A stretch of 63,418 bases of DNA, filler included, from Reclinomonas americana ATCC 50394 (GCA_048213135.1; 10 parts of 6 records of this genome joined end to end with filler, not necessarily neighbours in it), one strand, 5' to 3'. Positions 1 through 59,961 are shown, counted from the first letter of the whole stretch. The notes: a model not told the origin generated them from the letters alone. Numbers and translations: made by a program.

Positions 1-2344
1 CTGATGGTCGTTCCGGAGCCGGCAATGGCCGACCACGCCGTGGCTGCGTGCGTAAACTACCTGCTCATCAACCCGCAAATGCGACGGCTGTCTCTCGTCA
101 GTTGCGCCGTTCTTTTTTTCTCTACTCCTGTCCTCCCTACGTTCCCTTGTTCACTTTTTGCCGACCACAGGCCACGACATTTCCTCTGCCGGTATGATGC
201 GCCTCGCCGAGGCCGTGGAACATGCCGGTCACATGACGGACCTCGACGTGCGCATGAACTTTGTCAATCGACAGGCTGTGCTGCGACTGCAGGAGTGCGC
301 TCGTCGCACCCCATCGCTTCGTTCGCTGCGCTACACGGACCCCGAGGCCGCCGAGGCGTATCGCGTCGCGTGCAAGGAACTCGCCGCTGCCAAGCAGGAG
401 TTTCAAGAGGTCAAGAGCTTCACCACGCCGACCATGCCAGTGTTGTTTGTGATGCGACAGGTGCGTCTCTTGTGCCGTGAACGAGTTGTGTGTTGGGGAG
501 ACTCACTGTGGTGTGGTGGTGGTGGCAGATTCTGACCACTCTTGGCGACGTGGAGCCGCATCGCGAGTTGAGCTGGACGCAAGTCAAGCGACACTTGGGT
601 TCCTTCAGTCGCCTGCCCGAGCGCCTCCTGGCGTTCGCCATGCACAATGTGACCGCGTTGGCAGCGGATCCGTCGCGCCTGCGCCCGTGGACTGTGGCTC
701 CTGACCTTGATCCGGCACCGCTGCGCCGTGCCTCGATGGCGTGCTTCCGTGTGGCATCGTTCTTCCAGGCACTGCACGGAGTGCTCGTGTCGGGTCGCGA
801 GCAAGAGGATCTGTTGCTGCAGAGGCGCACCAGCCAGCACGAGCAGCGACTGCAGCGTGAGGCCAGCAGTGGAAGCCTGTCGCCGCGTTCACCTCGCTCC
901 CCACTGTCACCGCGCTCTCCTCTGTCGCCGAGGACGCCGCGCAGTCCACTGTCGCCGCGCGCTTCGCTGTCGCCTCGTGGTGCCGCCGCCGCGGCCGCCG
1001 CCGCTGGCGGCAATGGCAATCCTTTGTCTCCGCGCACTCCGCGCTCCACTCTGAACCGCGCCAACTCAATGGACAGCAGCAGCTCGCTGTCGCCACGCGG
1101 TGGCACCGGCAGCCGACGCGCTCCGCTCTCCTCACGCACCCGTGCACCATACGTCGGTGACCTGTTCAACGCCTTTTTCGACCTTCCCGACATTTGCCAT
1201 TCGCGCATCATCTCGTTCCTGCCGGTGGAGACGACGCAGCGCATCTGGAAAGTGTCGCGCGCGTTTTTCCGCATTCTTCGTTGCGTCTTTTCTTTCTTTG
1301 TTTCCTTACAGCAGCCGTCATTGCTTTGTTACTGACTTCTTCCGTGGGTGCTCAGGCGCGCACGTCACCGCCGTGATCTTCTCCGGACCGACTCTGAGTG
1401 TGTCCAGCGTGGAAAACCTCGCCTCGCTGACCTCTCTGTCGGTGCGACCCGGGTGGCCGCGCATCGGCGACGAGGGCGTCATGGTCGTGTGTGCTGGTCT
1501 TCGCTATGTTTCGTCACGCTACTGCCTGCACTTTCCTCCCCCTCGCTCCATCTGACTCTCTGTGTGTGCAGTCGCGTCGAGTGCGCGAGTTGCGACTGAA
1601 GGACCAGGACATTACGAAGCGCGGTGTGCGAGTCTTGATCGACGCACTGCAGCGATCGCCACACATCGAGGTGGTCGACTTGCGCATGAATCCCATTGAT
1701 CTGGAGGGTGTGGAGGAGCTGCGGCAGTATGTGCTCGAGTCGTCGACACTGCGCTCGGTGCTCATCACAGGTTTGTGACGCATGGTCGCACACGCATGGT
1801 CTCCCGTTGCATTGCTCACTCGGTCACGCTTTGCGTGCTGCAGAACCGGACCTCAGCTGCCAGTTTGCTCAAGTCCGCACGGAAGCGCTGCGCGAGTCTG
1901 AACTCAAGGAGTTGCTCAAGTTCATCAGGCCACCGCCGCCAGTGGTCGACGTCATGGAGGAGCTCATGCAGACGCTGTCGGTGTCGGTGGCCGGCGAGTT
2001 GCACGCTGCGTCGCGGTGGAACTTTATCACCAAGTCGCTGCGTGGCTTCAATGGCAGCCTGACGCGCGCCATGGAGATGCTGCCGCACAATAGCGCTCTG
2101 TGCACCGAGGAGCGTCTGCGGCCGTGGACCAATCCAATCTTCCACCCAGTTTCGCCCTGTCCGTCCCCATGCTTTTTAGTTGTTTGCCCTCTCACACCCT
2201 CCGCACTCGCAGCCGACGTTGCGACGCTCGTCAACGGCCGCCGCCGCTGTGGCGCTGTATTTCCGCGGTCTCAACGCCGTACTCATGGCCGACCTGGAAC
2301 TCGTGCCGGCGGCCGCCGAAGTCGTCGACAATCGCGCGCGTTGA
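1..2344 (+). CDS. LRR (RNI-like)/F-box protein with two dynein-stalk MTBD-like domains; 5'-partial, 7 exons
   Basis: Phase-compatible GT-AG introns (donors at 101, 461, 1280, ~1508, ~1771, ~2149). LRR-type segments (VRELRLKDQDITKRGVRVLIDALQRSPHIEVVDLRMNPI), F-box-like FFDLPDICHSRIISFLPVETTQRIWKVSRAF, SPxSPR repeats at ~877-1100, and two MTBD-like blocks. Stop TGA at 2342-2344. Confidence 0.7.
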
Positions 2345-3182
2345 CGGGATAGGATAGATTACCATTTTTGCTTTTCGTTATTGATGTTGTTGTTTTTGTT
2401 TTATGTTTTGCTGTGTAACATGAGGAAATGAAATCGCGGGAGGAACAATGCTTCTTCGTACCACCACCATCACTTTGCATTCAACCTACTCTCGCAAAGC
2501 AACAACGACGACGAAGCACGACAATGATATATATGGACACAAGGACATTCTAACAGCAAGAGACACGCTACAGGAACCAAAACCACCGACATACTGAGGA
2601 CTAGGGGGGAAACGGAATAAAACGATGAAGAAAAAAAGAAGACTACGACTCTGCCGACACACCCGACTGCACGCACCGTATTCCACAACAAACAAGCAAG
2701 CACCCCTCTCCACCCATCACCACCGACAGCCAGACTGAAGCATGGCTGCGGTGAATGAGAGTTGCTGCTGCAGCCACCACCACCACCATCACAATCACCA
2801 ATGGCGAATCAGCCCATCTCCACTATAGAGAACTTGGATGGGCATGGCCGACGATGAATGGGCGACAATGGTGGGGAGCAGCAGTCAATGAGAGAGAATA
2901 GCAGCAGTTTGTGCAGAGTGCGCGCACCAACATGGCGAGTGCACGACAGAATCCAAGAGCGAAACCAGGTAAGAAAGAGAGGAAAACAAGGAAACAGGAA
3001 GACACAGGGCGAGGGGAGAAAGGAAAAGAGAGAGAATGAGATGACAGAGCGACGGGTGAGATGCGTGAAAGCGTGCGGGAAACAGTCTCACGACTGCCTT
3101 GATGCTCCACACGCCTCACACACCACGCCATTCGCCACCACCACTCCTCTCCTTGCCCGCGTCCCCACTTGCGTGTGCCTGC

Positions 3183-6159
3183 TTACTTCTTGCCCTTCTC
3201 CTCGAACTCGGCCTCGGTCGGGCCGCTCGAAGACGACGACGACTGCGCAAACACAAAGTGAGTTTTCCCACACACACGCGCACACCACTGGACAGAAACG
3301 CAACAGCATTGCGGTGAATGTGCTCGCCAATCTTCATCGAAGCCGTTGTGACGGCCTCCTTGGCCTGACGGATACCCTCGATATCGTCGCGGCCGACAGC
3401 CTCGCGCAGGTTGGCAATCTCCTTGCGGAGAGCGTCAGAAATCTCCTGCGGCACCTTGCTCTTGTACTCCGACAGCGTCTTCTCCGACGAGTGCAGCAGA
3501 CCCTCGGCGTCGTTCTTCAACTCGACGAGTTCCTACGCAGGCCAAAAAATGAGCAACAACAGAAGCCCCAGACGCAGCCACATTCGCATCATTATTCTTC
3601 TACAAACCCTGCGAGTGCGATCCTCGGCAGCGTGCGCCTCAGCGTCGCGAATCATGCGCTCAATCTCCGCCTCCGACAGGCCACCCTGCGGGCGCACCGA
3701 CGTCTGCTGCTCCTTGCCAGTGGCCTTGTCCTTGGCCGACACGTGCACAATGCCATTGGCATCGATCTCGAAAGTCACCTCCACCTGAGGCACTCCGCGA
3801 GGCGCCGGCGGGATGCCGACCAGATCAAAGTTGGCCAGCAGCTTGTTGTCGGCAGCCATCTCACGCTCGCCCTGCAGCACCTTGATCGACACCTGAGTCT
3901 GGTTGTCGGCGGCAGTGCTGAATGTCTGGCTGCGCTTGGTCGGCACGGTCGTGTTGCGCGGAATCAGGCGGGTGAACACACCGCCGAGCGTCTCAATGCC
4001 CAGCGACAGCGGCGTCACATCCAGCAGCAGCACGTCCTTCACCTCGCCCATAAACACACCACCCTGAATGGCGGCACCCATGGCCACGACCTCGTCCGGG
4101 TTCACACCCTACGTGTGCGCGCCACGTACGTGAGAAAACAAGACAAAAAACTGCACCCGCCGCGGGGATCACACAAAACCTTGAACGGCTCCTTGCCAAA
4201 GAACTTGGTGACGACCTCCACGACGCGGGGCATGCGAGTCATGCCACCGACCAGAATCACCTCGTTGATGTTCGACAGACCGACACCGGCGTCCTTGATG
4301 GCAGCGCGGCACGGATCGACAGTCTTCTGAATCAGGCTCTCCACCAGCGACTCCAGCTTCGAGCGCGACATCTTCATGTTCAAGTGCTTCGGTCCCTGAG
4401 CGTCGGCAGTGATAAACGGCAGGTTGATCTCCGTCTGCAGCGTGGAGCTCAGCTCGATCTTGGCGCGCTCGGCCGCGTCCTTCATGCGCTGCATGGCCAT
4501 CGAATCGTTCGACAGATCAATGCCAGTCTGCGAGGCTGGCGAGTGAGTGATCTGCGGCCAGCCACGACTGTGAACGGGCGAGGAAACCAACCTCCTTCTT
4601 GAACTCGTCGCACAGGTAGCGCAGGATGGTGTTGTCAAAGTCTTCGCCGCCGAGGAACGTGTCGCCGTTGGTGCTCTTCACCTCAAACACACCGTCGTTC
4701 AACTCGAGCACCGAGATATCGAAAGTGCCGCCACCGAGGTCGTACACGGCCACGGTGCGCGCCTCGCGCTTGTCCAGACCGTAGGCCAGCGCCTGTGCGA
4801 GGGAGGGAGAGCAGGTGAGTCTCGCGGCACGCCAATGAGAAGAGAGAGGATGAATACAAACGCAACGGCAGCAGTCGGCTCGTTAATCACACGCATGACA
4901 TCCAGACCGGCAATACGTCCAGCGTCCTTGGTGGCCTGGCGCTGGGGGTCGTTGAAGTACGCGGGCACGGTGATGACGGCCTTGGAGACCGGGCGGCCGA
5001 GGTACGCCTCAGCAGTCTCCTTCATCTTGGTCAGAATGAAGGAACCGATCTGCGCCGGCGAGTACTTCTTGCCGTCGGTGGTGGCGACCCAGGCATCGTT
5101 GCTGTTGTCGGCCTTGACAATCTTGAATGGCACCATCTTGGACTCCTTCTGTGTCTGCGGGTCGTTGAAGGCGCGGCCAATCAGACTGCATGGCGACAAC
5201 ACAAAACACGTGAGTTTTTGAGTGCTGAGGGAAGAAGAGTGTGTGCGATTGCTCACGCACCGCTTGGTGGCGTAGAACGTGTTGGCACCATTGGTGACCG
5301 CCTGGCGCTTCGCCGGCTGGCCCACCAGACGCTGTCCGTCGTCCTGTTCGAGTGGCAACAAGGCGGAGTGAGCCGGCGGCTGACGCGAGGGAAGAGAGGC
5401 ACACGCAACAGTAAAGGCGACAATGGACGGCGTGGTGCGTGCGCCTTCCGAGTTCTCCAGCACCTTGGGCTGACCACCCTCCATCAGCGCCACACAGCTG
5501 TTCGTCGTCTGCACGCGAGATAAGAAGCTCACAATTAGACTCGCAGAAGGGGAAAAAGATTCGCATCAGCATCCTCAATGCAAAAACGCACTCTGTGCGT
5601 GGGAGAAGGAAGAGTGAGCTTCTGTCGTCAGAAGACAGATACACACACACACACACACACACTCACCCCAAATCGATTCCAATGACGACATCGGCCTTAC
5701 TGTAGACACACGCACACACAGCGGAAGTAAGAGGACATGTCGCACAAAACTCCGCGTGCTCAACTGCGCGGAGACACCACTGACGAAGACGGAGCTCACC
5801 TGGCAAACGACTGTAGATGGCGATGATGATGATGGGCACAACACAGACAAGGAGAGGAAAAGCAGTCAGTCAAGATGCACACGTCAGCATCACACATACA
5901 CAAAACGACAGATTGTCAGGCGGAGAGCGCGAAAGACAACAACAACGACAGAGAGAGCGAGCGCATCAGACTGGCAAGGCGAGGAGAGGGGAGGCAGAGG
6001 GGCGACATGCACATGCGCATGCGCAAACACACACTAATGTAAACACACAGAGAGAGAGAGAGAGAGAGAATGCAACGCAACTCGCGCCGCAGCCTGGCGC
6101 AACAACGGCAGTGAGGACGACGACGACGCGCCAACAAAGCGACGCGCTGCAAGCAACAT
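3183..6159 (-). CDS. HSPA9: Mitochondrial Hsp70 (DnaK-type, mortalin/Ssc1 orthologue)
   Basis: Spliced product begins [48 protein letters not shown] (Arg/Ser-rich presequence). It contains [66 protein letters not shown] and [14 protein letters not shown]. Includes an 11-nt exon (5800-5810) and a 1-nt exon (5592). Confidence 0.95.
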
Positions 6160-6238
6160 CTTCTCTCGTGTTCCGATCTAAAGAAACCGAATAGTGGGAC
6201 GAAGGGACGCGCGCAGGACCACTCTTACGTTTCGTCTC
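6160..6238. promoter_or_regulatory. Putative bidirectional promoter between the Hsp70 and eEFSec start codons
   Basis: Divergent ATGs at 6159 (-) and 6239 (+) are separated by only 79 nt. Confidence 0.55.
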
Positions 6239-8917
6239 ATGAGCGAAGGGAGCGCTTCTGCTGCTGCTCCTGCTGCAGACGATGCATTGCCACCGTTGAA
6301 TATCAATGTGGGAATTCTGGGGCATGTGGATAGCGGAAAGACCACACTTGGTGAGTGAGAAAAGAACAAAAAAGTCTTTCTCACTCTCTCTGACTTTCCT
6401 GTTTTGCATCAGCTCGTTCTCTGTCAACAGTGGCCTCGACCGCGTCGTTTGATAAGAGCCCGCAGAGTCAGGAACGCGGCATCACACTCGACTTGGGATT
6501 CTCGTCGTTCTCTGTTGACTTGCCGGAGCATCTCGGGCCAGAGGTCTTGTTACGCGCATTCTCCGCGTGTGTGTTCTCCTCAGTGTCCAATCAGTCTTTT
6601 GTGTCTCGCATTTCAATGCTGTGAATGCATGATCGTGTCTCCTGCTCCTCATCATTCTTCTTCTCATCCTTCTTCTTCTTCTTCTCCATCATCATCTTCT
6701 TCTTCATCTTCTTCTCCTCCTCCTCCTTCCCACTGTGCAGTTCTCCTCCTGTTCGTCTTCTTCTTCTCCTGCTTCTGCTGCTTCTCCTCCTCGTCCTTCA
6801 TGTGCTTCTCCTTCTCCTTGTCGTTCTCTTCCTCCTCCTCCTCCTTCTCCTCTTGTTCTTGTTCTTGCTCTTGTTGTTGTTGTTGTTGTTGTTCTTCTTC
6901 TTCTTCTCCTCCTCTTCTTTTTGTTCATCTTCTTCCTCTTCTTCTTCCTCTTCTTCTTCTCCTTCTTCTTTTTCTTCTTCCTCTTCTTCTTCTTCACCTT
7001 CGTCTTTCTTCTTCTCCTTCTTCTTCTCCTCCTCCTCTTCCTCCTACTCCTCCTCCTCCTCCTCCTCTTCCTCCTCCTCCTCCTTTTCCACCACCACCTC
7101 CTCCTCCTCCTCCCCCTTCGCCCTCATCCCTCATCCCTTCCCGTCTTCTCGCTCCAGGTGGCCTCCCGCTACTCCCGCCTCCAATTCACGCTCGTCGACT
7201 GCCCCGGCCACGCCTCACTCATCCGCGCCGTCATTGGTGGCGCGCAAATTATCGACTCGATGATCCTCGTGATCGACATTCAAAAGGGCATCCAGACGCA
7301 GACGGCCGAGTGCATTGTCATTGGAGAGATTCTCGCCGGCGACCTGGTGGTGGCCCTCAACAAGGTCGACCTGATTCCGGCCGAGGCGCGCGAGGAGGCC
7401 ATTCGGAAAATGTCGCTCCGCCTCTCCAAGACCTTTGCGACGTCGACGCGGTTCGGGGCCGAGGTGCCGATTGTGCCAGTGAGTGCACTGACGGGTGGCA
7501 TTGAGGCGCTGGTGGCCACGCTGCGACAGCGTGTGCGCGTACCGCAACGGGACTCGAAGCCGTCGCGCTTCGTGGCCGCCATTGACCACTGTTTCAGTGT
7601 GCGTGGCGTGGGTACGGTGTTGACGGGCACGGTGCTCAGCGGCAGTGTGTCTGTTGGCGACAACATTGCGGTGCCGTCGGCGGGCGACTCGGAACTGCAC
7701 CGCGTCAAGTCGCTGCAGGTGTTTCATCGACCGGTGCAGCGGGCGGCGCAGGGCGATCGGGTCGGCATGTGTGTGCACGGAGTGGACGCCAGCAGCATGG
7801 AGCGCGGACTGGTCGGCGCCCCCGGCAAACTGGTGCACGTGAATGCGTGTGTGTGCTCGGTGCATCCGGTCAACTTTTTCAAGCTGGACGCCCCCTCGCG
7901 CTCCAAGTTTCACATTACCGTGTCGCACACCACCGTCATGGCCACTGTCAACTTCTTTTCACCCCCACTCGCCGCCGTCGATGCCGATCGAGGTGGCAGC
8001 AGTTCGGGTGCACCATCGGCACCGGTGGAGGCTGCCGCGCTGTCGCGAGTGGCACTGGAGGGTGTGCAGGACGAGCGTGCGCGCTTCACTCTCGACATGG
8101 ACTTCCTGGACGACGCAGAGATGCGGCGAGCGGGCAGTGGCACCGCGGCCGGCGGCGGCAGCAGCACCACCACGACAACAACAGCAACCTCGTCGAGTGC
8201 CGCAGGTCCGTCGGCGGCGGCCGGTGATGGTGGCGACGACGGCGATGGCGACGGCGATGATGACGCTCCACGCAAGTCGCTGATTGACGAGCCACGAGCG
8301 CCGTACCAGTTCGCCCTGTTGCGATTCGACCAGCCCGTGTTGGTGCCACACGATGCGCTCCTCATTGCATCGCGCCTCGACACCGACATTCGTTGCGTCG
8401 CGCCATATGTCCTCATTCTCTCCGTCTCGTGTGTGCTGATGATGAGGCACACAACACAGACTCGCCCGTCTGTCGCCTGGCCTTCCACGGACACATTGTG
8501 TCGCCACCGCTCACCGACGACATGCTGGCGCAGCTGCGGCTGTACAAGCCGAAGGCCAAGACGGGAATCATTGAGCGTGTGCAGGATGCGTACACGGTGA
8601 TTGCGCGCCGTATGTTCAAAAAGGACACCGATATGAGTGTGTTTCTCGGGTTGCGCGTCACCACCTCCACGGGCGAGGTCGGTGTGATTGACTCGCCATT
8701 CGGCAAGTCGGGCAAGTTCAAGGTTCGCTTCCCGTCGGGCGGCATCACCGACGCCTGGAAGGGCCGCGAACTGTACCTTCGCTTCAAGAAGTACATGCAC
8801 AGTTTTGGCAGCGCTGCTTCCGGCAGTGGAGGCGCCTCGTCGTCTGGCGGCAGTGGCTCCTCCTCCTCGTCGGCTGCCGGAGCCGGCAAGGGCGCACACC
8901 GAAAAATCCACCAGTAG
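6239..8917 (+). CDS. EEFSEC: Selenocysteine-specific elongation factor eEFSec (SelB), 4 exons
   Basis: NINVGILGHVDSGKTTL, STASFDKSPQSQERGITLDLGFSSF, QFTLVDCPGHASLIRAVIGGAQIID, AIDHCFSVRGVGTVLTGT, SRLDTDIHSPVCRLAFHG and FGKSGKFKV match the eEFSec family. Confidence 0.93.
6650..7115 (+). repeat. Compound (TCT)n/(CTC)n/(TGT)n microsatellite in eEFSec intron 2
   Basis: Directly visible pyrimidine-rich trinucleotide runs; source of the spurious poly-S/L/F ORFs in the track. Confidence 0.9.
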
Positions 8918-8999
8918 AACACGCAACGAATAGAAAAACACAAAAAAAACACGCGATTTTCACTGATATTCGATTTCAACTATTGACAGGAGCGGCGTA

Positions 9000-14703
<5,704 letters not shown>

Positions 14704-14724
14704 CCTGCTCTCTCACACACACAC

Positions 14725-16475
14725 TTACACTACTTGATCGAGTTGCGCAGCATCAAACAACTGCGGGACAGCACGTCGCCACATGAGCAGCGGGTGCGAG
14801 GCCGGAACTTCGGCTTGTGGACCCATCAAGCCTGTTCTACGCAGCATCTCACTGTGTAGCGTCATTGCTGCAGTGCCGCTCAAGGCCGCGGATTGGCGGT
14901 CGCGCAGGAAGTCAAAGTGGTCGGCGGAGACGGTGTTGTCGCCGTGCTGCACGTACCAGTAGAGCGTGGGCGCGTCGAGCATGATGATGCGGTGGGATTG
15001 GAGGAGTTGGTGCATGGCGACTGTGTCCTCGCCGCGGTTGAGGTTGCCGTAGGGCGGCATGGCTGACTTGCGGCACACGAGTGTGTTGTCCTGGTGCCAC
15101 ATGACGGAGAAGCGGAGGGTCGGCGGCCACACGTTGGCGTGCCAGATGATCTCGCGCGCCAACGTCGATGCGGCCACGGACTCGTCGGCGAAGCGCACAA
15201 TGGCCTGCATTTGCACGGCCAGGCGATCTGGATCGTAGATATCGTCGTCGTCCCACACGGCCACGTACTCGCCACGTGCCATCTCCACGGCAAAGTTGCG
15301 CTGCGTGCCCAGTGTCATCTGTTCGCGCTCCTCCTCCGACGAGGTGCGGATGCCAAACAGGCGGATGCGTGAGTCGCCCAGGCGCTGCAGCACGCTGTCG
15401 AGCATGCGTTCCGTCGCCGGGTTCTTCGTCACAATCACCAGCTCGCGATTGGCATACGTCTGCAGCTGGAACAGGTACACCGCGCGCAGGGCGTGCCACA
15501 CGCGTCGATCGGTGATCATCAGGCACGACACGAGCGGCAGGTCGGGCGATTCAGGCGAAAAGTACGGCGCCGGGAACGTGCGACTGTCGCCAAACATGAT
15601 ACCGCGCGCAATGACCAGCACTTCTGTTGGATTCGCGGGCGACGGATGCTTGTCCGTGATCAGATAGCCAACATCGGTGAGCGCTGAGAGGCGAGCGCGT
15701 GTGTGTGAGCGAGTGAGTCAAGCAACAACGAAACACACCGAACGAACCACGACCGCTGCCCTCAATCAACTGCACAGTGACGAAATCAGTGAAGATGATG
15801 ACGCGCGTGAGAGGGGCGACTCAAGAGGAGGAGGAGGAGGCACGCACCCAGTCTCGCATGTTCTCTGTGATGGGTGGGTGCTGCAGCTCGTTGGCGGGTG
15901 TCTCCTTGGCGACCAGTTGCCACGAGCCGCGTCCAATGCCTCCAATGCTCTGTCCGTCTTTCTCAGGGTCGGGAGGAGGTCCACACACGAGCAGAGTGAA
16001 GGTGTCGGTGAGAGGGTAGTAGATCCACCAGCGGAGAGAGCANNNNNNNNNNNNNNNNNNNNNNNNNNNNNNNNNNNNNNNNNNNNTTAATTAATTAANN
16101 NNNNNNNNNNNNNNNNNNNNNNNNNNNNNNNNNNNNNNNNNNCGTGGAGCGCAGGAAGAGAGTTGGGTGTCGTGTGCAGAAGCATGCGCGCGTCTGTGCA
16201 CAGAGTGAGTGTGTGCGAGAGTGAGAGAGTGTGTATGTGCACGTAATCAGCGCACCTCTTCGCCTGCAATGGACACCGCATGGTCGACAGCCACTGTGCG
16301 CGCGCGCACACACACGTCATTCAATGCACACACATAGACACACTCACACACAACAACTGACGCAACATTGCGCATTGCTGTGTCTCACAAGGCACACACA
16401 GGCGACAAGGAGGAGGAGGAGGAGGAGAGGAAACCGCAGATAACACACGGCCTCTCTTCTTCTCTCCGCAATCAT
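14725..16475 (-). CDS. GT2-family (GT-A fold) glycosyltransferase, paralog 1, with signal/anchor and Cys-containing N-domain; 5 exons
   Basis: PLVSCLMIT, QTYANRELVIV, TLGTQRNFAVEMARGEYVAVWDDDDIYDPDRLAVQM and GED motifs. Hydrophobic exon 1 (MIAERRREAVCYLRFPLLLLLLLVACVCLV). Exon 3 reads continuously across the spacer at 16043-16142. Confidence 0.85.
16043..16142. other. Artificial scaffold spacer N44-TTAATTAATTAA-N44 (others at 12743, 29131, 31442, 37386, 39239, 53733, 55677, 59482)
   Basis: The same 100-nt linker, with stops in all six frames, occurs nine times. Here the flanks join with no missing base (LRST|CSL), matching paralog 2. Confidence 0.95.
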
Positions 16476-16601
16476 CGATTTGATCAATATTATGCACCTT
16501 TCCCGCCAATTCTTTGTCGCAAATGGACTTCAGAGAAGGCCGCCCCACACACACACACGACAAAGCATGGATTGTCTAAGCTGTATTCTCTCCGCGGTCC
16601 A

Positions 16602-43408: not shown

Positions 43409-46400
43409 TCACCTACGCGGTGGCGCAGGCGGCTTCTCCGGCGACGACAGCGCGCTCAGGCTCAACACACCCTGCTGCAGCAGTGTCCTCATCTGGCGCG
43501 TGGCGCTTGTCAGCAACACACAGCAAGCGTGGTGCCACGAAGGTAACGCAACATTATCGGGGCCGGTGGACACCCGCTGAGTGTTGAACAGATGCGAGTC
43601 CACCATTCGCGCCTGCGCAGCGTGCAGCGGCAGCGTCTGCAGCTTTGGCGAGTTGGGCACCTCAATCCTGCTCGCAAAGTGTGAGTGCCATGTGACACGC
43701 AGCAACGTCTCTGCGCAAACGCACCAGTTCGACGACACGGTGACACAGCGCCAGGCATAAAAGACGTTGCAGACGAGACGCCGCCGGTTGAATGCCGCGG
43801 CATCCGCCAATCGCTGCTGCCGCAAACGCTGCTCACCAAGCCGCGTCCTCCACCGACGCCAGTGGCGCATCAACAAGCGACGCGGATTGCCCGCCAACGC
43901 CGCTCGCACACCATCCACGAACTGGCGCATGGCGGCACACTCGCGACGCCACACTCGCCACACGTGTTGCAGTCGGTGGCGGCGAGCTGCATGAAATGGA
44001 ATGAGATCGGAGCAGAGTGAAACAAGAAAACGGTCCCATCCCGACGTTTCTCACCCATCTGCGCCGCTGCAGGGACGAGCTTCCGCCTCAACAGGAGCGC
44101 ACGACGCCAGACCAACCAGGCACGGTGGCAGGCGGTGCGCACCTGCATGTGACGCACCAGGGCGGCTTCGTGGAAGGAGGCACGCCACAGACGCCAGGAG
44201 CGCGCCAGCGTTGCGCGAGCCCAGCGGCGCTGGTGCGCAGCCTCGCGCAGTCGCATGCACCAGTGCGCAAAGGCTCGTCGCTTCGTGCGGTTATTGGCAC
44301 GCTGTATCGGGTGATACAGAGAGTGAGGCGCAGGTACGTAACAGATTCATGCACACGATCAAGCTGCATACCTCATACACACGCCTCGCCAGACGAGCCA
44401 GCTGCGACTCGTGTCTCCACGTGCGCCACGCCACTCGCAACTGCAAGCGTGCCATGCGCGCCTCGACTTTGCGGAAACACAGCTCGTCCCACAAATTCTG
44501 TCGCACACCCACCATCCACGCCTGCCACGTGGTCTGCAACCGAGTGCGACGAACCACGCGCTGCAGGCGACTGGCCAGCGTGATGAGTGCGAGTCGCCGC
44601 CGCCACAACGCAAACACCGGCCGCAGCTCGGTCAGTCGACGCTTCTGGTGCAGCTTCTCCACGGCCACCTGCACACTCGCACGATGTTGCAGCCGCCTGT
44701 GCCAGTGCGACAGGCACGTACGCAGACTGATGCCACGCCCCACTGTCGACAGACGGCTGGCAAAGTCGCGCGCACGCACGGTCTCTTGCCGCCACACATC
44801 AAAGCACTGCCGCATCGTGTGCACGCGCAGCTGGCGGGTCCTGTGGAACGCGCGCGCAAAGTCGGTCAACGTGCCAGGGGGAAGGAGTGCGGAGCAACGG
44901 CACGCATACCTCGCATACAGGCTGAGCATGAGATCGCGCTTGCGCGAGAATTCGACACGGCACTGCTGAGCACCCGACACGAACTTGCGCCACTCGCGAA
45001 AGGCGCGTCGCAGCTTGCCGGCATCGAGAATTCCTCGCACATAGTGCACCGTGAGGAGTGCTGCATCCCGTCGCTGCTTGGCGGCACGCCACGCCTGCCA
45101 TGCCGTCGACTTGGATCGGTGCACTGCCACTTGCTCCGCCACCGCCTGGTGTCGCAAGAATGAGACAACAACAATCCTCCACAAAAGGACACTCTTGCAG
45201 ACACACAACTGCATCCTCGGCATGCGTACGACGCATGTCCACGAAATACTGCCAGGCATGCCAGTGGCGCCGCAGCAGACGCAGACGATCAAGGGAGCCG
45301 GCACGCTGCAACTTGCGTCGAATCCACGCCTCGCGCCAGCTACGCCACATGCGCATCGACAGCTGGCGGTGATAGACGTCGTCCATGTCGAGCAGCTGCA
45401 GACGCCGAATGCGATGGTACGCCATGAACGCCGAAAAGACGTGCACGCACAATCGGTTCAGCTGGGAAACAGACACACATACAGAATGTTGTCACAAAGG
45501 GAGCGAACAAGAAAAGGAGCACGAGCAACACGCACCCGCCGCCGCTCAATGACCGCCGCGATTTGCTGTCGTCGTCGATGCTGCTGCAATCGCGTGCGCC
45601 ATGTGCGCCAGGCGGCGAGCTGCAGCGGCCCGAGATACATCAGCGACACCTCCTGACCAGTGGATTGCACATCGCGGCGGTACACGGCATGCGCACGCCA
45701 CGAGGAGAAACAAGTGGTGATGAGGTTTCTGCGCAGATTGCGAAGTGAGAATCCACGAGAGCGACCTGCGCGTAGCTGTCGAAAATGAGCGACCCACCGT
45801 CGACTCGATGACACGACGAGGAGGATCATGCTGCGTAGCAGTTGCTGCGCCTGCAGCCGCCGACGCCAGCGCTGAGTGGCGTGACGAAGCAGCGTCTGGT
45901 CACGGCGCAGCGAGATGAGCTGGCACAGCAGCGACTCGTGCAGCCGCATCGCCCAGAAGCGTCGGAATGCCCACAGTACCACGCGACTGGGAGGTGCGAT
46001 TGAGTGAGCACAGAACCGCCCATTACGAGAGGCATTGTGGAGACGCACCGTTCAGCCTTGCGGAACTGCTCCAGGAGCGGTTGCATCGACACGCGGCGGT
46101 GCGCCCACTGTCGCCACACCAGGAATTGTTGACGCAGTCGCATCTTGGCGAGCACCTTGCCAAAGTCGACACTGGTGGGCAAAGGACAAGAATTGAGGAA
46201 TGAAGGAGAGAGGGACACCGAACAAGAGCGGAAAGTGAGAGAGGAACAGGAAGAAAGAAAGAGGGAAAGGAGATGAGGAGCAACAACGAGAGGAATGAAG
46301 GGAAGAAGAGAGAGGAAAAAAGAAAAAGGAGTCGGACAAAAGGAGGAGACAAGGAAGGGAAGACAGAAGGGTGAGCGAAGAACAAGAATGAATGAGAGAG

Positions 46401-49400
46401 GGAGAACGCAAAGACACAGAACGGAAGTGAGAGAGGAACAGGAAGAAGAAAGAAGGAAAGGAGATGAGGAGCAACAACGAGAGAAATGAAAGGAAGAAGA
46501 GAGAGGAAAAGAAAGAAGAAGAGTCGGGCAAAGGAGGAGAAGGAGAGGGACAAGGAAGGGAAGACAGGAAGTTGCGCGAAGAACAAGAATAAGAATGAAT
46601 GAGAGAGGGAGAACGCGAAGACACAGAACGGCGGGTGAGAGAGGAACAAGAAAGAGGAACGAAGGATGGTGATAGAAGATAAGAGGGAAGAGAAGCAGAC
46701 CATTGAGAACAGACAGATGAAATAGAGGAATGGAGGAGATGGTGACGTAAGAGGTGGCTCGCGACGACACGCAACATGCGACGACGGTGTGAGGAGCGCT
46801 GCTGATGACGTGAGATCCAGTGGTCGAGCAGCTGGCGCAGTTCTCGCCGCCGACGGAGTTCCTTGAACCGCCGCTGCAGCAGAGCGAGACGAGTGTTGAC
46901 GTGCCAGTGCGCAAAGGCGGCTCGCTGCAGTGACAAACGCTGCTGGGACACCACACGGACTCTGCAGAGTGATAGTGCGTGATTATGACCACTCAGCTAT
47001 TGCGAAAAGGTGCTTTGATACAAGCACGCAACGACACGGTGCGCAGGAATGCCGCTCGCCGCCAGTGTGCCACGAATGCACCAAAGCACCGCCTGACGGC
47101 GTGCTTGTCGGCATGAGTGACAGCCAGCACAAACTTGGCACGACGATGGCGTCGTGCCTCGAGCATCTGCATCCACCGCCGAAACAGAGCCTCCACGACG
47201 AGACCGTTGCTGCACATCAAGCAAGTCAATCCCAATGACACGCAAGAAACGCACGTAACCTCAAACTCACCGTCGGTTCCGCACAGCCTTTGCCCGGCGT
47301 GCTCGCTGCAACCATGCCTTCCACACGGCAAACGTGCGACGCTGCACACCGGTCAAGTGCCACGCCACTGCACACGACGGGATAGTGAGAGCGAGTCCGC
47401 CAGGCCTCACAAATATCTCAACTGCTACGCAACATGCCCGCAGTTCCCGCCGATGCCGTCTGCGATCACACCACACATGCCAGTACCGTTGCAGCTGGTG
47501 CCTCTCGACAACCAGCGCGCGTGCACGATTGGCCTTTTGCAGTCGCCACCACTGCAGCCAGCGGGAGAAGGAGCGAAACCTGCAATCAAATGTGAGGAAA
47601 TCACGGAGCATCACACTGTTCTCTCTTTCCCCCGCGATTCGTAACTGTGCGGTGCGGCGCCACAGGCCCAGCGCTCGCCGTTTCTTGGCCTCCTGCTGCT
47701 TCTTGTGACGATGAAACTCGCGCCATTTGGCAAACGCCACGCGCACATGCGAGCGAGTCCATTGCACGAGAATGGCACGAGCGACTGCCGTGGGCTTGGA
47801 GACTCGATGCCAGTAGGCGAACAGCACCCGCTGCGTGGCAAGGTCGCGACGTCGCTGCAGTGCAACCGCTCCCGTGCGTTGGTGCGCTCGGTCGTCCACA
47901 AACCGCATCCACGAGGCCCACACTCGACGACTGCACATTTCTCGTCAGTCAAGGCGCGGGCGAGAGAAGAAACAGAAGGCAAGCACACGCAACGTCAGCG
48001 AGCCACTCCACACGGCGAGCATTTGGGCATAGCGACGGCGCCGTTGGTGACGCATCGCCGTGTACTCCAGCCACGCACGAAATGCACGCGCCTGCGTCGC
48101 GCACAACCATTGCCGCACGAACCTGCGAAGCAGACCGCACAGCTGCCATCGTGACTTCCAGCGCAGATAAAACTGTGGCCGCATGCGTGTACGAGGGGCA
48201 TGAGAAACGCAGAGATGTGGCGATAGATGGAACATCCAAGAAGTGCACCTTCTGTACAGCACTCTGCGTGGATTGACGGCCGGCGACAGCTGCGTGCAGT
48301 CGTCGCTCTTTCCGCTGCGGCAAAAACTGCTTCCAGTGCCGAAATGCTCGACCCCTGCCACCCAGCGAGACGTCAGACGGTGCAATGCATGCTGAAAAAA
48401 GTGAACTTGAAACGCAACAAGAGCCGCGCTCGCCAGTTAACAAGGGCCTTGCGCAGCTGCATCATCGCACGTCGGCGACTCTGCCAGCGGTGAAAGAAGC
48501 GCTGCTGGATGAGCCGATGGATGGAGACAGTGAGTCGCGTGGCGGTGGTGTGCGCCTGACGACGAGCGTCGATAAACTTGCACCAGCGCCTCCATGAAAC
48601 ACCTCTGCGCAGGGGGACATGAGACCAGGCAAGATGAAAAAAAAAGGCAAGGCTTGCGCAACAGTGTGCTGGACGTCCACAGCGCCAGCGCTTTGCCGGA
48701 TTTTTGCCGTTTTGCTCGGCAAGCCTCAACAAACCCACTCCATGACCTTGGTACACAAAAGAGCGGGTAGTCGGTCGGGAAGCAGAAGCACAGAGAGAGC
48801 ACGGCGCAACAAGCTTACACACCGCCAGCATTTGCTCAGACTCTGCTTGCGCCACCGTTGCACGGCAGCGCGGCACTGCTGCAACCGACGAGCGCGTGCA
48901 AACCACCACGCAAACACATGCATCCGCGTCTGCCTGTCCACGTGGTCCCGGAGCGTGGCTGCCAACTCATGGGCACGCACACGATGCTGAGTCCACGTTT
49001 TCCACGCCAGGAAGAACTTGATGCTGCAGCGAGCACAACCAGTTGATCAGTGCGGAGGGGTGAGCGCGGTCTCCAACAAGAGTCAATCACACGCACATCT
49101 TGCGCCCCATCCACACTTGCAGGTTGCGACGCCCGGCCTCATGTCTGCGTCGCGCGCGATCAATGAATCCCATCCAGCTGTTCCACGCACGTGACATGGT
49201 GCGATGCAGCGCCTTGCGCAGCAGACGGCGTGCTTGCAGCCGCCGGTTATACATGGCGCGCCAGTGTGCAAAGAACTCGCGCTGCACACTGCGCTCTTGC
49301 TGGTACTGCAAGTTGGAGACGGAAGTGTGTTCGGCGACACTGCGCTCTGTCCACTGTCGCCAGGCGGACCACACGCGACCTCTGATGATTTGGGCAAGGG

Positions 49401-53593: not shown

Positions 53594-56257
53594 GGGAGGA
53601 AGAAACGAAACGAACGAACGAACGAAGGGAAGGGGAGAGGAGAGACAAGTACAACAGCGTAGGTAAGGAGTAGGATAGTTAGTAAGAGACTAGAGAGAGA
53701 GAGTGTGTGTGTGAGAGAGAGAGAGAGAGACANNNNNNNNNNNNNNNNNNNNNNNNNNNNNNNNNNNNNNNNNNNNTTAATTAATTAANNNNNNNNNNNN
53801 NNNNNNNNNNNNNNNNNNNNNNNNNNNNNNNNGGAGAAACGAAAACACGAACGACAAGGAAGGGGGAGAGTGAGAAGCAAGTCAACAGCTGTAAGGGATA
53901 GGGATATTGTAAGAGACTGAGAGAGAGAGTGTGTGTGTGAGAGAGAGAGAGAGAGACAGAATACGGGACGAGAAGCAAGGAAACGACAAGACAATTGTGA
54001 GTAGTTGAGAAAGATATCGAAGGAGAATGTCACAGTGAGAGAAGAGTGGGCACTGTGACAACTGCGGAGAGGATGGAAAACGAAAGAAAGCGAGTGGACA
54101 GGAGAAGAGAAAGCACGCAGGACACAACACACGAACAGAGGAGTGAATCAAGCAAGAGATGCACTCCGAAACGCACTTTTGTCGCAGCAATAAAACGCCA
54201 CGCACGCGTAACCGTCGCATGCAACACTGCGCATTTCATCAGCTTCAGCGGACAGTCCCCGAACAGCACAGCAAGGACGGCGCACAACTGAACCTCGCGA
54301 AACCGCTGCACCCAGTGCGCAAAGAGCTCCCGTTGCGAGCGCTTGTCCTGACGAGCCAAGATCGGTTGCACAAGACGACGCTCACACTCGCGCAGCTGTC
54401 GGTACAGCTTCAGACCCTGGGAAACAGAAGCAGCAAGCATTTAGACTTCTCCTCCATTCACATCACCGCAGACAAAGGCAGACCTTGATAAAGCGCCCCG
54501 CCAGACGTGCACGAATGCGGCAGCGAACGAGTTCCTGGAAGTACTCCTCTTCGAAGCGCCATCGCTGAAAGCACTTGCGCACAATGCGCCGTGTCCAGTG
54601 ACGCACCGCGCGCAGCCAGTTGTCCGTCATCAGGCGGCGAGAGTGTGAGCGACGAGTGACCCTGCAGCGGCACTCTCAGCAGCGTGCGATACGGAACAGA
54701 GTGGACATTTACACACACTCACACACCTTCTCCAGTCGCGAAACACCCGCTGCTGCAACACATAGGCCGCAAAACCACGCAGTCGCTCCTCACCGCTGTC
54801 CGCTTTCCCAGAACCCTCGCCAACAGATCCTCGTGACGTGCGTCGCAAAATTGAAGGCGACGGTGGTGGTGACGTGCGCTCCACCAACTGGCGAGCTTGC
54901 ACCGACGGTGGCGGCAGCAGATCAAACGGCGACGACGACGACGACAGTGACGCCACAGACGACGATCGCAGTGGTGGCGAGAACACTGCCGAGTCTCTGC
55001 TGTTGACAGACTGCGCTGCCGCTGAAGGGGATCGTGCCTGCTGCTGCTTCTTCTTCTTCTCCTCCACTTCCACCACTTGCTGCGCATCCGTGGTTGCCAC
55101 AAAGTCGAGACGACGTGCGGCGGCATCGCGCTGCGACCGGCGTGCATCCGGCGGCGACGGCTGCAACACCATCGAATCCTCGGCCGNNNNNNNNNNNNNN
55201 NNNNNNNNNNNNNNNNNNNNNNNNNNNNNNNNNNNNNNNNNNNNNNNNNNNNNNNNNNNNNNNNNNNNNNNNNNNNNNNNNNNNNNNNNNNNNNNNNNNN
55301 NNNNNNNNNNNNNNNNNNNNNNNNNNNNNNNNNNNNNNNNNNNNNNNNNNNNNNNNNNNNNNNCCCCCTTCCCCTTATCCGCCTTTCCCCTTATCCTCCT
55401 CCTTCTCCCCCCTTACAGCCTCCCTCGCCCCACCCTTCCCGGACTCCCCACCCCCCTCCTCCACCACACCAATTCACGCCTTTGGCCGCATTCCACCCCG
55501 CGACCTCAGTCTGTGGATGCTGGAGGAGGACTTTGCGGCGTTTGACGAGCGACTGTCGCGCATGGTGGTTCATCGGGAGGGCATTGTGACCCCCAACTCG
55601 GCCGCCAAGGCCGCCCGCGAGGCAGCGGCGGCGGCGGCGGCGGCGGCTCGGCACGCAACGGAGGTGTCGGATGTGTNNNNNNNNNNNNNNNNNNNNNNNN
55701 NNNNNNNNNNNNNNNNNNNNTTAATTAATTAANNNNNNNNNNNNNNNNNNNNNNNNNNNNNNNNNNNNNNNNNNNNTAGAGGGGTAGGGGTGAGAATGCA
55801 ACTGAACTGAAAGAGATAAAAGAAGCAAGGGATGAGAAAGAGAGAGAGAGCAGAGCGTCAGAGTGAATAACGACCAGTGACGAGAGGTTTAGAGACAGCG
55901 AGAGGTACGGGAGGCCGGGATTGAGGAAGGGGGATGAGGAGCCAGGGAAGAATGAAGAGTGAACAGTGCGTCAGGGTACTTGACTACTGCACGGACACGA
56001 TGGGACTGGAAGCAAGGAGGGTGATGAGAGGAAAGTGAGAGAAGCTGGAGGAGAAGACTGACGGTTGGAAAGTGAGAGTGAGAAGGCGATGATCTTGGAA
56101 GAAGGAAAAGGGAACAGAATGTGTTGTTTTCTCTACCTGGTGAAGTTCGTCTCGCAGCTTGTACTTCGCATGGAAACGGTTTCTCTGTCTGTCTCTGCCG
56201 CTCTCGCCTAAGTCTGCTTGTCTGTGTGTTTTATGTCGTGTGCCGCTCTTGTTCCTT

Positions 56258-59230: not shown

Positions 59231-59961
59231 CAGCTGCAAATGGACCTGACACGTCATAACATATGTCAAGGGATGTCCCACTAACATCACTCTGACATGA
59301 CCCCCTTGACATGCTCTTCTTGCAGTTAGTAACTGTACCGCGAGTACTCCGGAGTGCTCAGAACATGTCGTTCCAGTGCAGTGACACGTCATCTCCTCGC
59401 GGCTGACATGTGTTGACATCCGATTCGCGAGCCAAACACCCCACGCGCAGCACAGCAGCCGCTTGCTTCTGCGCACATCCANNNNNNNNNNNNNNNNNNN
59501 NNNNNNNNNNNNNNNNNNNNNNNNNTTAATTAATTAANNNNNNNNNNNNNNNNNNNNNNNNNNNNNNNNNNNNNNNNNNNNTGTTTCTTGACCTTAGACC
59601 ACGCAAAGATGGTCGACATCGACATGACAGAGAGAGAGAGAGCGCGCGCTCTTTTGTGCAATGAGGAATGGTCGCGTGACACTCAGACCGACACAGGAGG
59701 TCATGGGCACCCACTACCACCACTCTGTGACGCTTATGCACTCACTTGCGTGACATGGTTGATGTGCACCTTCTCGTCACATACACTGAAAAGCCCTTCT
59801 CCTGCTCCTTGGGTGCTCGCGGCTTCGGAGACCACCATTCCATGGAGTTGACTGGCATGTGCTAACAGGTGCCGGACGATGTCAACCAGCAGCGAGCATG
59901 CAGGTCAAGATCGTTAACATCGCTAACATATGTTATGACGTGTCACCGCCATTTCCAGTTG
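59231..59961. mobile_element. Non-autonomous DNA transposon (MITE-like) with degenerate TIRs and TA target-site duplication
   Basis: TA|CAGCTGCAAATGGACCTGACACGTCATAACATATGTCA ... TAACATATGTTATGACGTGTCACCGCCATTTCCAGTTG|TA: a 32/38 inverted match with TA on both sides and many internal TGACA/TAACAT motifs. No transposase ORF seen. Confidence 0.65.

Follow-up and report, generated by a model that had tools for sequence, protein, structure and literature searches.

A GTT-N-N-G class of 5′ splice site resembling the normal donor displaced by one base in Reclinomonas americana nuclear DNA

One 63-kb stretch of nuclear eukaryotic DNA from Reclinomonas americana ATCC 50394 (GCA_048213135.1; 63,418 nucleotides (nt) at full length, here called the window) holds two large families of intron donors side by side. 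Among 70 curated introns, 28 have a GTG donor (the GTG class) and 27 (~39%) have a GTT donor with G at +6 but another base at +5 (GTT-N-N-G, the shift class). The commonest donor hexamer of the whole list is GTTGCG (18 introns), joined within the shift class by GTTTCG (4), GTTTTG (2), and GTTGAG, GTTGTG and GTTACG (1 each). By its base preferences the shift class is the normal motif MAG|GTGMGT displaced by one base, and we see roughly even chances that the two classes represent one donor motif read in two registers, through a shared core, by a U1 small nuclear RNA (snRNA) with an altered 5′ end. A first-pass annotation of the window had noticed the GTTGCG donors and proposed that they and the normal donors share one string cut one base apart; the observation is confirmed and widened here to a broader class, and the statistics at +4, +7, −1 and −2 give the proposal independent backing.

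The one-base offset of the shift class

The two classes line up position by position once they are offset by a single base. Shift-class donors carry G (20) or T (6) at +4 in 26 of 27 cases, where the GTG class has its G at +3; +5 is C in 23/27, and its counterpart at +4 of the GTG class is A in 12 and C in 13; T at +7 (18/27) answers to T at +6 (19/28); and the base at −1 (A 10, T 8, C 7, G 2) answers to −2 of the GTG class (A 10, C 10). The exon side sets the shift class apart most sharply: G precedes the cut in 2/27 shift-class introns vs 34/43 of the other donors (Fisher p = 2.3e-9), or in 2/12 vs 12/12 within the homology-fixed introns described below, and C stands at −2 in 18/27 vs 12/43 (p = 0.0026). 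A phase-corrected test set 22 shift-class introns against the codon-phase-specific composition; positions −3 to −1 and +7 are unused by the gene finder from which many of the introns come. C at −2 was found in 14/22 vs 30% expected (p = 0.0013), G at −1 in 2/22 vs 32% expected (p = 0.015) and A at −1 in 8/22 vs 18% expected (p = 0.034). All three deviations point in the direction of a +1 shift, and the pattern of C at −2 and A at −1 is suggestive of a U1 whose positions 11 and 10 face −2 and −1.

The position of the cut itself was fixed by an argument that assumes protein conservation only. At donors 9522, 8392 and 42519, the base that follows the acceptor is not G, and moving both borders by one base would alter, respectively, the H of HIDFG, the H of DIH and the I of ATISAPHMH; the cut therefore precedes GTT.

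Each of the 25 coordinates listed in the first-pass annotation does read GTTGCG on one strand, with 101, 1280, 8392, 24463, 25351, 40426, 42229 and 42519 on the plus strand and the remaining ones on the minus strand, and the exon base before the motif is indeed other than G at 23 of the 25 (G only at 11089 and 40426). The hexamer occurs 86 times on both strands of the window, vs 53.3 ± 7.3 in 100 dinucleotide shuffles, none of which reaches 86; GTGCGT is enriched to a like degree (93 vs 56.3 ± 7.3). Candidate donors make up 33 of the 86 occurrences. The other 53 (17 within sense exons, 21 antisense to an exon, 15 intergenic) equal the chance expectation, and the excess is therefore accounted for by donors.

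Evidence of donor use was graded for 21 of the 25 listed sites, those outside the grading being 22675, 31312, 31818 and 40426. Protein colinearity fixes eleven (4866, 5409, 8392, 9086, 9522, 10867, 11089, 11946, 24463, 42229 and 42519), with margins that are only moderate for 24463 and 42229. Coding potential on both flanks backs four more (101, 3304, 19096 and 25351), and another four are plausible on weaker grounds (1280, 6081, 38833 and 43552). The last two, 16366 and 18204, occupy the same place in two paralogous family-2 glycosyltransferase (GT2) genes, starting near 16375 and 18213, in which the GTTGCG intron separates a 9-nt first coding exon from a conserved second exon of 38 nt.

Intron calling and the junctions of the shift class

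Introns were called in two ways. In the colinearity test, every GT/GC...AG pair within ±45 nt of an intron slot was spliced in silico and scored against homologues. The scores resolved 6 of 11 slots in the Hsp70 gene (clear margins at 5409, 5260, 4866, 4591, 4179 and 3607), 8 of 13 in the phosphoinositide 3-kinase (PI3K) gene (12470 with GTGAGT; 11946, 11089, 10867 and 9522 with GTTGCG; 11760 with GTTTGT; 10573 with GTGACT; 10038 with GTGCCT) and 2 of 5 in a CRT-like transporter gene (23931 clearly; 24463 as the best candidate, with a moderate margin). Margins were not decisive at the Hsp70 5′ slots 6081, 5799, 5666 and 5591 and at 3304, at PI3K 12243, 11632, 10750 and 11414 vs 11420, and at 24607 and 24996 of the CRT-like gene, an exon of which gave no match in a word-index search and only distant relatives in a full HMMER search. 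The 24 homology-fixed junctions comprise 12 GTT-N-N-G, 8 GTG, 3 GTT with G at +5 and 1 GTC.

The second source was a self-trained gene finder (a 3-periodic Markov coding model with a Viterbi parse), which after training predicted 152 introns, 23 with GTTGCG and 19 with GTGCGT. Retaining introns of 45–150 nt with a positive coding score on both flanks left 64, among which the homology-fixed 5409 replaced 5421; the first pass of the gene finder misplaced several introns, e.g. 5409 and those at 42229 and 42519 in the PCMT gene. The filtered set was merged with the homology set to give the curated list of 70 (24 from homology, 46 from the gene finder).

Within Hsp70, on the minus strand, splicing of intron 4793–4866 (gcc|GTTGCGTTT) joins INEPTAA to ALAYG and that of 5344–5409 (act|GTTGCGTGT) joins SIVAFT to DDGQRLVG, both by homology and PDB alignment, and 4109–4179 (aag|GTTTTGTGT, GTTTTG), a shift-class donor with G at −1, scores 199.8 vs 149.8 for the next candidate. 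Near the 3′ end of the gene, 3243–3304 (gct|GTTGCGTTT) has coding flanks of 5.9/4.9, homology being indecisive there. The eEFSec intron 8392–8459 on the plus strand (ttc|GTTGCGTCG) restores LDTDI-H-SPVCRLAFHG in PDB alignments to 5izk_A made in two frames. Five introns of the minus-strand PI3K gene belong to the class: 9458–9522 (tcc|GTTGCGTCT; 216.3 vs 199.3), whose removal joins SGQLF to HIDFG; 10797–10867 (tgt|GTTGCGTTG; 81.3 vs 71.4); 11010–11089 (ccg|GTTGCGTTC; 70.2 vs 61.8), which is one of the two shift-class donors after G; 11882–11946 (gct|GTTGCGTCC; 56.3 vs 48.4); and the last intron, 9021–9086 (cat|GTTGCGTCT; 70.4 vs 62.0 for read-through), from which follows a C-terminus NNWIH-IMAHRN that agrees with homologue ends such as NNYIHIMAHN. 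On the plus strand, PCMT intron 42519–42593 (cca|GTTGCGCTG) joins IGYNAT to I-SAPHMH in PDB alignments to 1i1n_A and 1r18_A; the first PCMT intron, 42229–42300 (gca|GTTGCGCTT), is moderately supported by a reading of the frames, from which the other PCMT introns were also read. The three motif junctions named in the first-pass annotation (INEPTAA|ALAYG, LF|HIDFG and NAT|ISAPHMH) are thus all reproduced.

The CRT-like transporter contributes two plus-strand introns, 24463–24536 (act|GTTGCGTGT), the best candidate at 56.2 vs 51.0 (a moderate margin), and 24802–24874 (gcc|GTTTCGTTC), called by the gene finder and tied in homology with a GC donor 3 nt upstream. Coding flanks accompany 101–170 (plus strand, tca|GTTGCGCCG, gene finder, 3.2/3.9), 1508–1571 (plus, tat|GTTTCGTCA, 5.4/8.7) and 19027–19096 (minus, tga|GTTGCGAGA, 4.1/6.7). 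The gene finder also supplied 2149–2212 (cca|GTTTCGCCC), 25203–25263 (cca|GTTGAGGCT) and 25351–25422 (gca|GTTGCGTGC) on the plus strand, the first of them via the curated list. Curated gene-finder calls on the minus strand are 22246–22300 in the third GT2 gene (gtc|GTTTTGTTG), 45146–45209 (gca|GTTGTGTGT), 47580–47645 (aca|GTTACGAAT) and 54662–54744 (ggt|GTTTCGCGA), together with three that were absent from the first-pass list: 26415–26480 (tcc|GTTGCGTTT), 27691–27753 (aca|GTTGCGCCC) and 47931–47993 (gac|GTTGCGTGT).

The intron at 25351 has a tandem acceptor at 25422/25425 (TTTGAAG|CAG|CAC on the plus strand), so that AAG or CAG, 3 nt apart, would be usable. Several Hsp70 and PI3K introns on the minus strand (5344–5409, 5186–5260, 3533–3607 and 9021–9086) have a length that is a multiple of three and contain no in-frame stop; their retention would give an in-frame insertion and not a truncation, and callers based on open reading frames read through them.

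Ordinary introns apart from the donor

Removal at GT...AG borders restores the frame and the conserved protein at the 24 homology-resolved junctions, 12 of them in the shift class, and beyond the donor the two classes are closely alike. Median lengths are 66 nt (shift) vs 65 nt (GTG); the acceptor is CAG in 24/27 vs 22/28; a branch-like CTSAY lies within the last 45 nt in 20/27 vs 14/28, at a median of 18.5 vs 19.5 nt from the 3′ end; base composition is similar; and the Hsp70, PI3K, PCMT and CRT-like genes each hold both donor classes. Judged by these features, shift-class introns are ordinary major-type (U2, GT-AG) spliceosomal introns. A U12-type identity was rejected, the donor RTATCCTT having no match on either strand of the window, as was an origin as introner copies: 91 within-class pairs have a mean global score of −0.175 vs −0.17 to −0.30 for other class pairs, no pair of introns exceeds a global score of 0.21, and the best local score within the shift class is 13.0 vs up to 15.5 for other class pairs.

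These comparisons also bear on the explanation that the class is an artefact, with GTTGCG sites that are in fact unused (an error of gene prediction) or that stem from one mobile intron family. That 46 of the 70 introns are predictions speaks for such an error. Against it, 12 shift-class junctions restore protein colinearity to the residue, and the first pass of the gene finder, whose donor model comprised GT/GC only, had already placed GTTGCG first among hexamers (5/64); the interiors of shift-class introns, moreover, are no more alike than those of other pairs, and the window has no U12-type donor. We consider an artefact highly improbable and largely refuted.

Normal-register donors and the tolerance at +3

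The first-pass annotation had also stated that GTGCGT/GTGAGT donors mostly follow G, which holds for GTG-type donors at large (22/28), and that the GTTGCG donors lack a purine at +3. The latter statement is true and yet too narrow as a mark of the class, since T stands at +3 in 34 of the 70 donors (G 28, A 6, C 2; a purine in 34/70), donors in the normal register included. Comparison cases on the minus strand are Hsp70 5186–5260 (gcg|GTGCGTGAG, GTGCGT; 175.9 vs 154.9), in the normal register, and PI3K 12409–12470 (aag|GTGAGTCGC, GTGAGT; 80.0 vs 61.1). Alongside them, likewise on the minus strand, stand three normal-register donors with T at +3: Hsp70 3533–3607 (agg|GTTTGTAGA, GTTTGT, with G at +5, T at +6 and G at −1; 159.1 vs 128.5), Hsp70 4528–4591 (gag|GTTGGTTTC, GTTGGT; 164.2 vs 152.0) and PI3K 11698–11760 (aag|GTTTGTTCG, GTTTGT; 76.3 vs 64.0).

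The curated list holds seven GTT donors with G at +5 (GTTTGT 4; GTTGGT, GTTTGC and GTTCGC 1 each), of which 5/7 keep G at −1; in the smaller phase-corrected set the proportion is 4/6 vs 2/23 for the shift class (p = 0.008). Because these donors keep their −1 G, T at +3 is evidently tolerated in the normal register too. The normal-register donors with T at +3, which mostly follow G (another lies at 27505–27588), resemble the Entamoeba GUUUGU consensus; a near-universal GUUUGU(U) donor set of the Entamoeba type was rejected for the window, where GTTTGT accounts for 4/70 donors. Donors with C at +3 also occur, namely PCMT aag|GTCTGT at 42345–42398 (plus strand), which is fixed by the frame, and GTCTGT/GTCTGC sites such as 54417–54483 (minus strand), so that any base is tolerated at +3.

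U1 pairing and the reader of the shifted motif

Five informative positions are all displaced by exactly one base, which argues for a single antisense reader placed one base downstream of its usual position. At Rfam gathering scores the window contains no snRNA gene (U1 or U6), and at E ≤ 5 it yields only low-complexity look-alikes of microRNA and small nucleolar RNA families over dinucleotide repeats. Pairing energies were calculated with RNAduplex for 26 shift-class donors, taking the canonical U1 5′ end as given in PMC4856993. Canonical U1 fits these donors poorly in its canonical register, register 0 being the best in only 2/26, and pairs with GTG donors at a mean of −6.9 kcal/mol. A U1 with G at position 5, hypothetical in this organism, has its best register at +1 in 22/26 and a mean of −4.8 kcal/mol, and a hypothetical ACGCAC core reaches −6.2 kcal/mol for the shift class.

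Under the two-register reading, the donor motif would comprise about nine bases, M-A/C-G-K-U-G/K-M-G-U, and U1 would bind both of its forms through the same core, U-G-C-G-U. Where the fourth base is G, the sole GU would lie there and the cut would be MAG|GUGMGU, in the normal register; where it is U, the sole GU would lie one base earlier and the cut would be CA|GUUGCGU, in the shifted register. The later steps (U6, U5 and Prp8) would then cut at whichever GU exists, as at human +1 shifted sites. The U1 5′ end in question would have G at position 5 and be ACGYAC-like, as reported for Mastigamoeba. The existence of the introns, their exact borders, their frequency and the one-base offset of the informative positions are established at the level of DNA; that U1 is the reader, and what its sequence is, we infer, and since canonical U1 would pair poorly and C is all but required at +5, the organism's U1 probably carries G at position 5. 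In its most specific form, in which a single altered U1 with this G binds both G|GUGCGU and CA|GUUGCGU, some 40% of introns use the +1 register, and the genome is the first with such a mainstream use, the proposal is tentative and falls somewhat short of even chances.

Several observations weigh against this reading. G at +6 belongs to the definition of the shift class and so is no evidence for a shift; C at −2 (18/27) is not matched by a preference at −3 in the GTG class (C in 8/28); and the preference for A at −1 is weak, with T and C nearly as frequent. With canonical U1, +1 is the best register in 15/26 donors, at a mean of −1.3 kcal/mol and 2–4 pairs, so that the shifted duplex would be barely stable unless the organism's own U1 differs. 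The C at +5 (23/27) is not a base that canonical U1, with U at its position 5, would select; A would be expected, as in the human sites, and GTTGAG occurs once. Since the +1 to +6 donor table of the self-trained gene finder reinforces frequent hexamers, its 46 introns may overstate how common the classes are, a bias that does not touch the homology tier (12/24). Finally, the junctions are known from sequence alone, in a single 63-kb window.

The first-pass annotation had favoured shifted or bulged pairing of U1 and U6, or a variant snRNA, as a mainstream mode. Its shifted register gains from the exon-side statistics and from T at +7; it loses from the weak canonical pairing and from C at +5, opposite to the preference of canonical U1. 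Given this bias at +5, simple shifted pairing by an unmodified U1 is no more likely than an altered or an additional U1.

The main rival to the two-register single U1 is a second, dedicated U1, or a U1 5′ end fully complementary to CAGUUGCGU (A for C8, GC for UU), with a canonical-like U1 taking GTGAGT and GTGCGT. Donors divide sharply into two families (27 and 28 of 70), a hypothetical U1 whose 5′ end complements GUUGCGU would bind the shift class at −9.6 kcal/mol and GTG donors at only −5.9, and precedents are described in the relevant parts of bioRxiv 10.1101/2022.06.08.495308, with altered U1 5′ ends in Entamoeba and Mastigamoeba and a standard plus a modified U1 in Physarum. Only one position distinguishes the two motifs, however, and one U1 that tolerates one mismatch is simpler; the variant would, besides, still pair in the shifted frame and differ from the two-register reading only in the number of U1 species. 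We hold a dedicated U1 to be unlikely.

Alternatively, U1 (and later U6) could keep its usual pairs at −1, +1 and +2 while the extra U, at +3 (or +2), bulges out and lets G-C-G-U fill +3 to +6. Such bulges are validated in human, according to the sections of PMC4856993 and PMC9311317 that treat them; a bulge would account for G at +6 and T at +7 too, and some looping-out is needed at the U6 stage anyway, as GU must occupy the active site. It also predicts that G is favoured at −1, where G is in fact depleted (2/27; 2/22 vs 32% expected), and the enrichment of C at −2 and A at −1 is what a shifted frame predicts. A bulged register is thus improbable. Slightly less so, though still doubtful, is a reader other than U1, whether a protein (U1C, a LUC7-type factor or another binder of the 5′ splice site) or U6/U5, that recognizes GUUGCGU directly, its likeness to a shifted motif being partly coincidental. 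Canonical U1 is predicted to pair only very weakly, whatever the register, and neither canonical U1 nor the U6 ACAGA box explains the strong C at +5; yet −2, −1, +4, +6 and +7 all move by exactly one base, which one RNA guide would explain naturally and a reader unrelated to it would not.

Comparison with known systems

Shifted-register 5′ splice sites are rare in human, whereas in the window they would account for 27 of 70 curated donors (~39%). At the human atypical sites, as set out in parts of PMC4856993 and PMC9311317, U1 pairs in a +1 shifted register, and the test substrate of PMC4856993 has the exon context CA|GU. The likeness to the window extends to a cut at GU with the paired motif one base downstream, to the CA|GU context, and to G at +6 and U at +7 acting as +5 and +6. 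The core, in contrast, is U-G-C-G-U in the window and U/N-A-A-G-U in the human sites described there, so that canonical U1 would pair only weakly in the window. Human bulge +2/+3 sites, as cited in the same two papers, share the extra U after GU and the displacement of the rest by one, but would predict a retained −1 G.

Among protists, the closest descriptions come from sections of bioRxiv 10.1101/2022.06.08.495308 (Roy & Bowser). Entamoeba has near-universal GUUUGUU donors and a co-evolved U1 with AACAAAC; it resembles the window in that U at +3 is normal and U at +7 preferred, and in a U1 5′ end that tracks the donor consensus, and differs in being intron-poor with one near-universal normal-register donor, whereas the window has many introns and two registers in parallel. 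Mastigamoeba balamuthi has GUGCGC donors and a U1 candidate ACGUAC. Shared with the window are the G-C-G core and, in normal-register donors, C at +4, and the window's shifted duplex would be stabilized by a U1 that has G at position 5; the account of that species describes no GUUGCG class and has C at +6, where the window has T. In Thecamonas and Mamiellales, a preference for C at +4 goes with a standard U1. The strict GTGCG(T/C) donors of Mamiellales/Ostreococcus correspond to the normal-register GTGCGT class of the window, although introns are few in those genomes and the part concerned with them mentions no shifted class. That the window belongs to a green alga is made unlikely by its class I PI3K and its density of introns. 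Neither a GUUGCG class nor the use of two registers is mentioned in those descriptions of Entamoeba, Mastigamoeba, Thecamonas and Mamiellales.

A search of full-text literature for GTTGCG or GUUGCG as a splice donor returned primers and unrelated sequences only, figure logos and supplements lying outside such a text search, and the literature on atypical donors, U1 snRNA and intron-rich protists yielded nothing that describes the class; it may nevertheless already have been described for the lineage. A scan of metagenomes for PI3K found 80 loci, none above 73% identity and with unremarkable counts of GTTGCGT; in the 9 of the 80 that were examined, no intron interrupts the gene where the window's PI3K has one, and none thus shows orthologous donors.

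Shifted or bulged U1 registers have so far been known as rare human exceptions, and co-evolved U1 5′ ends from two amoebozoan lineages. If the two-register reading is true, the use of two registers about equally, often within the same transcript, would be new, and would offer a natural experiment on the uncoupling of the U1 binding site from the cleavage site and on the limits to joint drift of U1, U6 and the 5′ splice site; with a single altered U1, it would represent a third independent case of co-evolution of U1 and the 5′ splice site. For annotation, gene finders that use a single donor matrix, or that expect a purine at +3 and G at +5, would miss or misplace about 4 in 10 introns of this organism.

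Gene content and other features of the window

The window has a G+C content of ~58% and tightly packed genes with many short introns of 55–85 nt. Pfam searches of its open frames identified a mitochondrial-type Hsp70 (3.2–6.1 kb, minus strand), eEFSec (6306–8917, plus), a class I PI3K (9.0–12.6 kb, minus) and three tandem GT2 paralogues (14.7–22.6 kb, minus); further genes encode a Kelch protein, the CRT-like transporter, a WD40 protein and PCMT. Given its eEFSec gene, the organism probably synthesizes selenoproteins. The best matches in protein collections reach 72% identity for PI3K and 83% for Hsp70. In a PI3K tree of 115 rows, the window protein pairs with two proteins at ~63% identity and falls in no named clade; it is 68% identical to m51a1_g10672, which we take to be a Mastigamoeba protein, and the two do not group together in that tree. 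A look-up of one GT2 exon in Atlas returned only generic bacterial-type glycosyltransferase clusters. Long open frames at 2858–5520 on the plus strand, antisense to Hsp70, match Pfam NAD-GH (PF10712) strongly; they are taken to be frames opposite Hsp70 and not a gene, the family having presumably been built on such antisense frames.

Runs of N interrupt the window, and some gene models are broken by them. Many occur as regular pairs of 44 + 44 bases with 12 bases between (12743–12842, 16043–16142, 29131–29230, 31442–31541, 37386–37485, 39239–39338, 53733–53832, 55677–55776 and 59482–59581), and longer runs lie at 55187–55363, 56323–56907, 58229–58517 and 61548–61714. The end of the window is AT-richer (~41% G+C) and heavily N-masked. 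Three repeat units in this region (60808–60913, 62321–62427 and 63084–63192, plus strand), each with a ~107-nt intron that begins at the donor accacg|GTGAG, resemble a small tandem gene family.

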